From Escherichia phage vB_EcoM_Lutter: a stretch of 64,000 nt of DNA. Numbering within the stretch: the stretch's first letter is position 1; each line of letters opens with the position of its first letter. The stretch lies in the sequence record NC_054924.1; one strand, 5' to 3'. The position numbers and the translations under genes were made by a program. Of the stretch, positions 1,828-2,109 are shown piece after piece. The notes beneath the pieces were generated by a model that had not been told where the DNA came from, ran no database searches, and worked only from the letters and a program-made list of their open reading frames with translations.

Positions 1828-2109
1828 CTATTTTTCTGAAGCGCCTGAAATATATTTTTCAAGACGTTGTTTCATCAGCGAGCCGTTCTTAGCGATTTCT
1901 TCCGGTTTATCGCACATACGCAACAAGGCTTCAAGCTTAACGATATCACTGGTGCGCTCAAATTTGCGAGTATCTATCTTACTAGCAAGTTCAGAAATAC
2001 GTGCTAATAGACTTTCGGCTTCAACCAAAGCTGCACCTAGCTTAGTTGCAAATGTGTCAGTAGCTTCGTTAAGAATAGATTCTGATAAAAATTCACTATA
2101 TGTTTTCAT
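1828..2109 (-). CDS. Internal-protein-like protein with capsid-targeting N-terminus; paralog of the ipI-locus protein at 10780-11037
   Basis: [16 protein letters not shown]... (93 aa from the ATG at 2109); start overlaps the e stop as ATGA; internal similarity to 10780..11037 (KLGxALxEAExLxxRIxELA...EIAKNGSxMKxRLE). Confidence 0.6.

Follow-up and report, generated by a model that had tools for sequence, protein, structure and literature searches.

We report that X, a small gene between the lysozyme gene e and denV in the DNA analyzed here (a window of 64 kb), is a genuine conserved gene of a T4-like phage and encodes a 93-aa internal head protein of the Ip5 family. Judging by its N-terminal sequence, the encoded protein very probably enters the phage head and is injected together with the DNA, and it probably has an anti-defense role, as a published study expects of T-even Ip-locus proteins (PMC12373910); of these two assignments, packaging is the more secure. 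The membership of X in a known class is not new, since public records already name it internal head protein or ip5. X and its immediate surroundings comprise the following features:

1828-2109, minus strand: X, the gene for a 93-aa Ip5-family internal head protein (ORF list, translation, PHROG 3499, dN/dS, homologous records)
2106-2594, minus strand: gene e (lysozyme), 162 aa, ending TGTWKAYI; 94% identical to T4 e, Pfam Phage_lysozyme
2106-2109, minus strand: ATGA overlap of the e stop (TGA) with the X start (ATG), read from the sequence
2590-2630, minus strand: hairpin that pairs the e Shine-Dalgarno sequence and AUG and holds two late promoters, TATAAATA (2608-2615 and 2621-2628); pattern search and RNA fold
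1766-1824, minus strand: PeSL-type element of 59 nt directly 3' of the X stop (sequence, RNA fold, published consensus)
1355-1768, minus strand: denV (endonuclease V), directly downstream of X; PHROG 1183 E 1.5e-62, Pfam Pyr_excise

The segment is of the Tequatrovirus type, and the genes of its first 12 kb are all on the minus strand. An earlier note on this DNA had described a 93-aa ORF with a T-even-type capsid-targeting N-terminus, which is indeed present at 1828-2109 on the minus strand, and had called it internal-protein-like, an identity now backed by a PHROG 3499 match (E 1e-46) and by agreement with experimentally defined targeting features. RefSeq uses the name 'internal head protein' for X in UFV13, ime09, G4498, phiC120 and others, the VR20 record names it 'ip5, similar to bacteriophage T6 Ip5', and the ime09 record of X mentions RB69ORF127c. 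Scans of Pfam, NCBIfam and PADLOC matched neither X nor Ip5 nor the ORF at 6690-7163. Candidates rejected in the region include an antisense 108-aa ORF (1811-2137), which is not a gene, as it starts with TTG and the substitution pattern fits the minus-strand frame, and a sigma-70-like match (2124-2095), dismissed as the promoter of X because the transcription start would fall within X.

By tblastn, X was found at ≥80% identity in 237 phage records, out of a total of 685 with a match to the e-denV region, and it lies under or beside the lysozyme gene in every row inspected. Carriers belong to Tequatrovirus, Mosigvirus (Bas46 ChristianSchoenbein, 98.9% identical) and Gaprivervirus (VR20, 89%). 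X is absent from T4 and Bas37, and is therefore dispensable. Comparison of X with its counterparts in UFV13, Bas45, Bas46 and ime09 gives 3-9 synonymous and 0-1 non-synonymous differences, and comparison with VR20 gives 22 synonymous and 14 non-synonymous ones (dS 0.47, dN 0.068, ratio 0.14). Purifying selection on the gene is strong (dN/dS 0-0.14), and since synonymous differences exceed non-synonymous ones, X is not a chance reading frame. Its paralog Ip5 reaches ≥80% in 267 records, and the two occur together in only about 9-11 of 495 family-positive records, the source phage included. This near-exclusivity may reflect functional redundancy or lineage structure.

Gene order at the locus varies between phages. 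T4 has vs.8, denV, ipII, ipIII and e; Bas37 has vs.8, denV and e, with no internal-protein genes there; the source phage has vs.8, ipIII, an ip-like gene, denV, X and e, an order that differs from that of T4. The succession vs.8, variable Ip genes, denV, X and e is common to the source phage, UFV13, Bas45, Bas46, ime09 and VR20. The earlier note had proposed comparing the denV-e junction with T4, and this comparison places no T4 gene at the position of X; DNA homology to T4 ends at 2111, 2 nt before the X start codon, an ATG occupying 2107-2109 on the minus strand.

The junction itself reads GCG TAT ATA TGA on the minus strand (Ala, Tyr, Ile and stop in e) and overlaps ATG AAA ACA (Met, Lys, Thr in X). 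Direct reading at 2106-2109 thus bears out the claimed ATGA overlap of the X start with the e stop, and the claimed difference at the lysozyme C-terminus was also found, with TGTWKAYI (162 aa) here and TGTWDAYKNL (164 aa) in T4. In VR20, e is full length (164 codons, ending AYENL) and overlaps X by 14 nt; its tail GCA TAT GAA AAC CTA TAA also reads ATG AAA ACC TAT AA, the start of X. The e tail of T4 and Bas37, TAT AAA AAT CTA TAA, differs from that of VR20 at 2-3 positions, and given this near-equality the junction stretch is an e tail that also forms, out of frame, the start of the targeting sequence. In the source phage, four additional nucleotides end e early (AYI, stop) and the overlap shrinks to ATGA.

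X co-segregates with one 3' allele of e (AQSKWYRQ..., ~125 nt), which is also found in the Mosigvirus Bas46, where the 5' two-thirds of e is RB69-like. At about 2232 the identity between the source phage and Bas46 increases from 58-82% to 93-100%, a level that extends across X, denV and the following Ip gene as far as about 1033. This pattern indicates that a block of ~1.2 kb was exchanged recently between the genera by recombination inside e.

A search of the minus strand from 445 to 2628 for the late-promoter octamer TATAAATA found just two copies, both directly upstream of e (2608-2615 and 2621-2628), and no late promoter of X's own. We take the equivalent hairpin and promoter arrangement of T4 e to make lysozyme translation late-only, and assume the same function here. 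X is preceded by a weak Shine-Dalgarno sequence (GGAAAG, 7 nt before the ATG). Given this layout, late expression of X most likely comes about through the pair of late promoters before e and through the ATGA overlap, with termination-reinitiation at the ATGA as the likeliest route of translation, giving X the same late timing as e.

The element that follows X consists of TTTACT (1824-1819), N17 and TACTAT (1801-1796) and fits the promoter-stem-loop (PeSL) consensus of PST and T4, TTTACW-N17-TAYWAT (PMC4122927). A perfect 10-bp stem, TTCCTCCAAG (1819-1810) paired with CTTGGAGGAA (1781-1772), covers the denV Shine-Dalgarno sequence, with the denV ATG next, and the predicted stem-loop folds at -21.8 kcal/mol (z -3.07). 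The same element is also found 3' of e in T4 and Bas37, and 3' of ipII in T4. Because it comes directly after the X stop, X is the last ORF translatable from read-through late e transcripts before the stem-loop.

The family to which X belongs has a second member in the window:

10780-11037, minus strand: Ip5, the X paralog at the ipI locus, 85 aa; 100% identical to RB15 Ip5 (Z35082) and to RB14 and RB32 Ip5

The name Ip5 reportedly goes back to Repoila et al. in 1994, and Z35082 comes from the original T-even polymorphism study. The paralogy of X to this ipI-locus protein, claimed earlier from shared segments, is evident by BLASTP (40/84 identities, 48%, E 1e-24), with the quoted segments KLGxALxEAE...RIxELA and EIAKNGSxMKxRLE both inside the alignment, and both X (E 1.2e-46, residues 1-87) and Ip5 (E 1.2e-49) match PHROG 3499, 'internal head protein'. 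X is located at the e-denV junction and not at the ipI locus, on the 57B side of the tRNA region, and the Ip5 ortholog is the gene at 10780-11037; X therefore represents a paralogous Ip5 subfamily, not an Ip5 ortholog.

When 1.84 billion representative proteins were searched exhaustively by HMMER with a profile of X and Ip5, seven matches came back, namely four real clusters plus fragments. These clusters are Ip5, X fragments and two metagenomic relatives of 94 aa (P0007 and P0008), for which no close counterpart was found among isolated phages. A word-indexed protein search with X retrieved near-identical copies only. The Ip5 family is tiny and apparently confined to T-even-type phages and metagenomes. 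An AlphaFold2 model of X predicts three helices (4-44, 53-65 and 69-91) with mean pLDDT 81 and pTM 0.62, from a shallow alignment of six sequences. Foldseek found no resemblance of this model to PDB structures, the best match (E 3.7) being to designed helical bundles, and a profile search of PDB sequences gave nothing below E 0.02, where all matches were spurious and coiled-coil-like; in BFVD, the sole Foldseek match was VR26 Ip5.

The case for packaging comes from the N-terminus of X and from head genes encoded elsewhere in the window:

2065-2109, minus strand: capsid targeting sequence, X codons 1-15, with gp21-type sites LSE (8-10) and LNE (13-15); motif scan
40047-40685, plus strand: gp21 prohead protease; Pfam Peptidase_S77 E 1.5e-111
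40716-41525, plus strand: gp22 scaffold; Pfam T4_CASP E 6.9e-90

In IPIII, the N-terminal 10 residues are enough for packaging, also of foreign proteins; residues 4 and 7 are the main determinants of targeting, residues 8 and 10 those of processing, and cleavage by gp21 follows L/I-x-E (PMC9026906). X carries Y4, F7, L8 and E10, of which Y4 and F7 are the same as in IPIII, and its second gp21-type site, LNE at 13-15, is followed by Ala. VR20 X has lost the first site (LTV) and kept LNE at 13-15, the site of Ip5 at 13-15 is ITE, and the two relatives from metagenomes carry either LAE (8-10) or LSE (9-11). All Ip5-family members thus retain one or more L/I-x-E among residues 1-15, at shifting positions; conservation therefore extends to a cleavable N-terminal peptide, with a mobile position. 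The gp67 and gp23 genes likewise lie within the 64-kb window, and gp21 and gp22 are the machinery that would process and recruit X. After the predicted cleavage, X would comprise 78-83 aa (8.6-9.2 kDa, pI 6.3-8.1). Our literature search, virion proteomics included, found no report of X or Ip5 in virions, cleaved or injected.

Within their mature part, X and Ip5 have another pair of L/I-x-E motifs (28-30 and 38-40), which lies in the best-conserved helix. They read LVE and ISE in X, LAE and IKE in Ip5, LVE and ISE in P0007, and IVE and ISE in P0008. No L/I-x-E was found outside the targeting peptide in T4 IPI, IPII and IPIII or in Bas37_0260, and processing may therefore differ in X and Ip5; the internal motifs may mean further processing, or nothing.

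Capsid-targeting genes are clustered in this region. Exactly five ORFs in the window start with MK[TSM][YF]x[EQD]F, all of them on the minus strand and in the first 11 kb, against a chance expectation of 0.01 (mean over 200 shuffles). Besides X and Ip5 they are:

445-1023, minus strand: ipIII ortholog, 192 aa; 92.8% DNA identity to T4 ipIII, PHROG 5341 E 6e-118
1087-1348, minus strand: frameshifted capsid-targeting gene, VR20 gp119-like and not T4 ipII, in two ORFs of 43 and 51 aa
6690-7163, minus strand: 157-aa capsid-targeting ORF (MKSYTQFLNEAVLNEA) with a late promoter at 7200-7207; PHROG 2280, unknown function

The gene at 1087-1348 carries a +1 frameshift in a T-run, with one additional T relative to the intact Bas45 gene. 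It was rejected as ipII, as it shows no homology to T4 ipII past the targeting sequence. The count of five capsid-targeting genes in 11 kb given in the earlier note thus stands for motif-bearing ORFs, but the one it had called ipII is frameshifted and is not T4 ipII, which leaves four intact. The ORF at 6690-7163 is near-identical to bas37_0244 (3 aa differences in 157).

Host immunity encounters injected internal proteins before any other phage molecule, and work of 2025 showed that all three T4 internal proteins and one of Bas37 specifically inhibit type IV restriction enzymes. T4 Ip1, Ip2 and Ip3 each inhibit one GmrSD variant, and the authors expect the remaining proteins of the two Ip loci to act likewise (PMC12373910); the supplements of that paper contain neither X, Ip5 nor the T4 targeting sequences. 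Bas37_0260, a capsid-targeting protein of 77 aa, inhibits McrBC (preprint 10.1101/2025.11.20.689424). It was ruled out as Ip5, which is bas37_0261; Bas37_0260 is the adjacent 77-aa gene. Our literature search found no experiments on X or Ip5.

Data deposited with the same preprint bear on Ip5. In HIDEN-SEQ, insertions in Ip5 (bas37_0261) fall from a mean of 263 on K-12 to 61 on CFT073 (10.1101/2025.11.20.689424), a 4-fold depletion (log2FC -2.09, adjusted p about 0, supplementary resampling table), and insertions in 57B, upstream of Ip5, show a log2FC of -1.56 on CFT073. The authors do not discuss the Ip5 depletion. The GmrSD homolog of CFT073 is c5421 (PMC4437046). Ip5 is carried by T2 and, as reported in the VR20 annotation, by T6. 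Both phages are restricted by GmrSD(ECOR21) and GmrSD(ECOR17), and T2 also by GmrSD(CT596) (PMC12373910, PMC4437046). Ip5 therefore does not block the ECOR21, ECOR17 or CT596 GmrSD. Tequatrovirus DNA contains glucosyl-hmC and Mosigvirus DNA arabinosyl-hmC (BASEL paper and public taxonomy), and X is 98-100% identical in hundreds of genomes across genera with different DNA sugars. Such near-invariance is unlike a fast-diversifying arms-race protein and argues against a sugar-specific target.

Taken together, these observations make it likely, in our view, that X is a late-made, e-coupled, capsid-targeted, gp21-processed and injected protein that disables a host defense nuclease. The earlier note had likewise put X forward as a candidate injected anti-defense protein. 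Late transcription of X would start at the two e late promoters, and its translation would come mainly from ribosomes that end at the e stop and restart at the overlapping ATG, and we propose that X thereby inherits the late-only translation of lysozyme. Its first 10-15 residues would bind the gp22 scaffolding core, so that X is built into the prohead, and gp21 would remove the targeting peptide after E10 and/or E15; what is left, about 78-83 aa (8.6-9.2 kDa), would be near-neutral and all-helical. The mature protein would be injected with the DNA and block a host defense protein before any phage gene is expressed. The target would most probably be a modification-dependent (type IV) nuclease variant other than those of Ip1, Ip2, Ip3 and Bas37_0260. 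We regard it as possible, though unlikely, that X and Ip5 form a distinct injected class with a target outside the sugar-specific GmrSD variants: given the 98-99% identity of X across genera with different sugars and the GmrSD sensitivity of T2 and T6, the target could be a modification-independent defense. If this is true, the depletion of Ip5 mutants on CFT073 would provide the first handle on the target.

Other explanations accept packaging and place the function elsewhere. X could work inside the head, as a core or scaffold accessory or as DNA-associated filler, with no inhibition of defense. Its very high conservation, with low dN/dS even between genera, and its small, helical, near-neutral to slightly basic product would suit such a role, and IPIII was formerly proposed to act in morphogenesis (PMC9026906), but X is missing in T4, Bas37 and roughly two thirds of related phages, and so cannot be needed for head assembly. 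The gene also lies in a hyperplastic Ip locus bounded by a PeSL shuffling element, and the Ip-locus proteins of known function are all anti-restriction factors, leaving a role in the head rather improbable. A variant of the favored mechanism, which we consider quite improbable, holds that gp21 also cuts X and Ip5 at LVE(30) and ISE(40), so that a ~53-aa C-terminal peptide and small internal peptides are injected; the C-terminal peptide could then be the active species. It draws on the presence of the L/I-x-E pair at the same positions in all four subfamilies, on the lack of the motif outside the targeting peptide of T4 IPI, IPII, IPIII and Bas37_0260, and on the multiple cuts made in the core proteins gp22, gp67 and gp68 (PMC9026906). 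The motifs nevertheless lie in the best-conserved, confidently modeled helix (pLDDT 87-91), which may be a functional surface and inaccessible to protease, and by our estimate about 1.6 such motifs are expected by chance from the composition of X.

The remaining explanations dispense with packaging. That the targeting-like N-terminus is a relic, and X a late cytoplasmic protein acting with lysozyme in lysis timing or as a chaperone or regulator, would explain its coupling to e; in all X-bearing records inspected, X invariably adjoins and overlaps e, and one specific 3' allele of e accompanies it. That linkage, though, is explained by recombination with e as homology arm, and the ipI locus, where the paralog Ip5 is found, is distant from e. 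Lysis does not need X in T4 and Bas37, selection preserves the residues for targeting and cleavage, and ten targeting residues are enough to package foreign proteins (PMC9026906), making this role very improbable. It is hardly credible that the ORF is unexpressed or a decaying remnant. X has no promoter of its own, its Shine-Dalgarno sequence is weak and a neighboring capsid-targeting gene is frameshifted, but the 93-codon frame is intact in 6/6 records inspected, the full 93-aa query aligns in nearly all 237 records (489/495 records show ≥80% coverage), and synonymous changes far exceed non-synonymous ones.

X is among the most widespread uncharacterized members of the internal-protein class, and many of its carriers are therapy candidates. 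Its target, once found, would add one more pairing of an internal protein with a defense system, an incremental gain that brings no new principle, and might help explain host-range differences among near-identical T4-like phages.

Among known systems, Ip5 (RB15, RB14, RB32, T2) shares with X the length class, the predicted helical architecture, the cleavage site at 13-15 and the two internal L/I-x-E motifs; it is, however, a free-standing gene at the ipI locus, between 57B and trna.4, whereas X lies between e and denV. In their mature regions, X and the characterized inhibitors show no homology, by BLASTP for IPI and by eye for IPII, IPIII and Bas37_0260. T4 IPI (Ip1), the inhibitor of GmrSD(CT596), resembles X in being small (95 aa precursor), non-essential and variable among phages and in carrying MKTF/YxEF and L/I-x-E, but the likeness is confined to the first ~20 residues (BLASTP E 0.013, targeting peptide only); IPI* has an alpha/beta fold, X is predicted to be all-helical, and the loci differ. 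T4 IPII and IPIII (Ip2 and Ip3), the inhibitors of GmrSD(ECOR21) and GmrSD(ECOR17), have in common with X the hyperplastic e-denV-vs.8 region, a targeting sequence and a position downstream of the e late promoters. Compared by eye, their mature sequences are unrelated to X, and a PeSL that carries an early-type promoter of its own sets them off from e, whereas X is fused to the e stop. Bas37_0260 (KarlGJung), a neighbor of Ip5 with a mature sequence unrelated to X when compared by eye, is like X a small capsid-targeting Ip-locus protein, and it shows that type IV targets other than GmrSD are possible.

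The gene for X, the 93-aa Ip5-family internal head protein encoded between the lysozyme gene e and denV, lies in a ~1.2-kb block (window ~1033-2232, minus strand) with 93-100% identity to the Mosigvirus Bas46 (L003), taking in the 3' end of e together with X, denV and the Ip gene after it. Across the 5' part of e the two phages share just 58-82% identity, and this sequence comparison points to a recent inter-genus exchange of the block between a Tequatrovirus-type genome and a Mosigvirus, the putative breakpoint falling within e. A short, imperfect direct repeat brackets X, its two copies being GAAAAC-ATATAGT (2107-2095) and GAAAA-ATAGT (1836-1827). 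Two features border the gene:

2095-2124 (-), e-X junction stretch, compared with VR20 (L008) 2495-2520 and T4 (L001) 3004-3020
1766-1824 (-), PeSL-type promoter/stem-loop between X and denV, TTTACT-N17-TACTAT

In VR20, e is full length and its final codons share 14 nt with the start of X (TATGAAAACCTATAA). The e tail of both T4 and Bas37 is TATAAAAATCTATAA, which encodes YKNL-stop and departs from the VR20 overlap at only 2-3 positions, so that the T4 lysozyme C-terminal tail is homologous to an out-of-frame capsid-targeting start. On the other side of X, a perfect 10-bp stem in the PeSL element sequesters the denV Shine-Dalgarno (z -3.07), and denV translation would be possible only from transcripts initiating inside the PeSL loop. 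Homologs of this element lie downstream of e in T4 and Bas37, and in T4 also after ipII.

The Ip content of the locus varies across almost all phages inspected: VR20 carries Ip10, gp119 and Ip7, while ime09 carries Ip4. UFV13, Bas45 and Bas46 have a 315-bp Ip10-like capsid-targeting gene (MKTYKEFIAESANQRVEGGY...) separating ipIII from the next Ip gene; it is absent from window 1024-1086, and the VR20 homolog occupies another position within the Ip cluster. One member of the set is disrupted in the window:

1087-1348 (-), split capsid-targeting gene between denV and ipIII

This gene is a homolog of VR20 gp119 and not of T4 ipII. It is intact (86-87 aa) in Bas45, Bas46 and VR20, and is broken here into ORFs of 43 and 51 aa by a single extra T within a T-run (GGGTATTTTTTTCTTAGG). 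The UFV13 gene has independently lost 2 nt at this site. The frame disruption could stem from repeated decay of the gene, from phase-like variation or from a sequencing error in the homopolymer.

Further ORFs lie in the region that holds tRNA genes in T4:

6690-7163 (-), 157-aa ORF with the X-like N-terminus MKSYTQFLNEAVLNEA; PHROG 2280 (unknown function)
7200-7207 (-), perfect late promoter TATAAATA, ~40 nt upstream of the 157-aa ORF
8252-8737 (-), 161-aa ORF
9130-9762 (-), 210-aa ORF

The N-terminus of the 157-aa product nearly matches that of X and contains two LNE sites; the protein differs from bas37_0244 at 3 of 157 residues, and the ORF is absent from T4. It is likely an additional internal protein. 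The 210-aa product contains an H-N-H-like pattern (CxxC...HxDGN...CPNCH), which suggests a putative homing endonuclease.

The sole experimental hint we found for the Ip5 family comes from a comparison of Bas37 transposon insertions between K-12 and the uropathogenic strain CFT073, one of six host comparisons (preprint 10.1101/2025.11.20.689424, Extended Data Table 7, Data S3). Insertions in Bas37 Ip5 (bas37_0261; L007 11364-11621) are ~4-fold depleted on CFT073 (log2FC -2.09, adjusted p about 0), and those in 57B, upstream of Ip5, show a log2FC of -1.56; the preprint makes no comment on the depletion. The family also stands apart from characterized internal proteins: the mature parts of X, its paralog Ip5 and the metagenomic relatives P0007 and P0008 all retain a further pair of gp21-type motifs (L/I-x-E, 28-30 and 38-40), whereas T4 IPI, IPII and IPIII and the McrBC-inhibiting Bas37_0260 have no L/I-x-E outside the targeting peptide.
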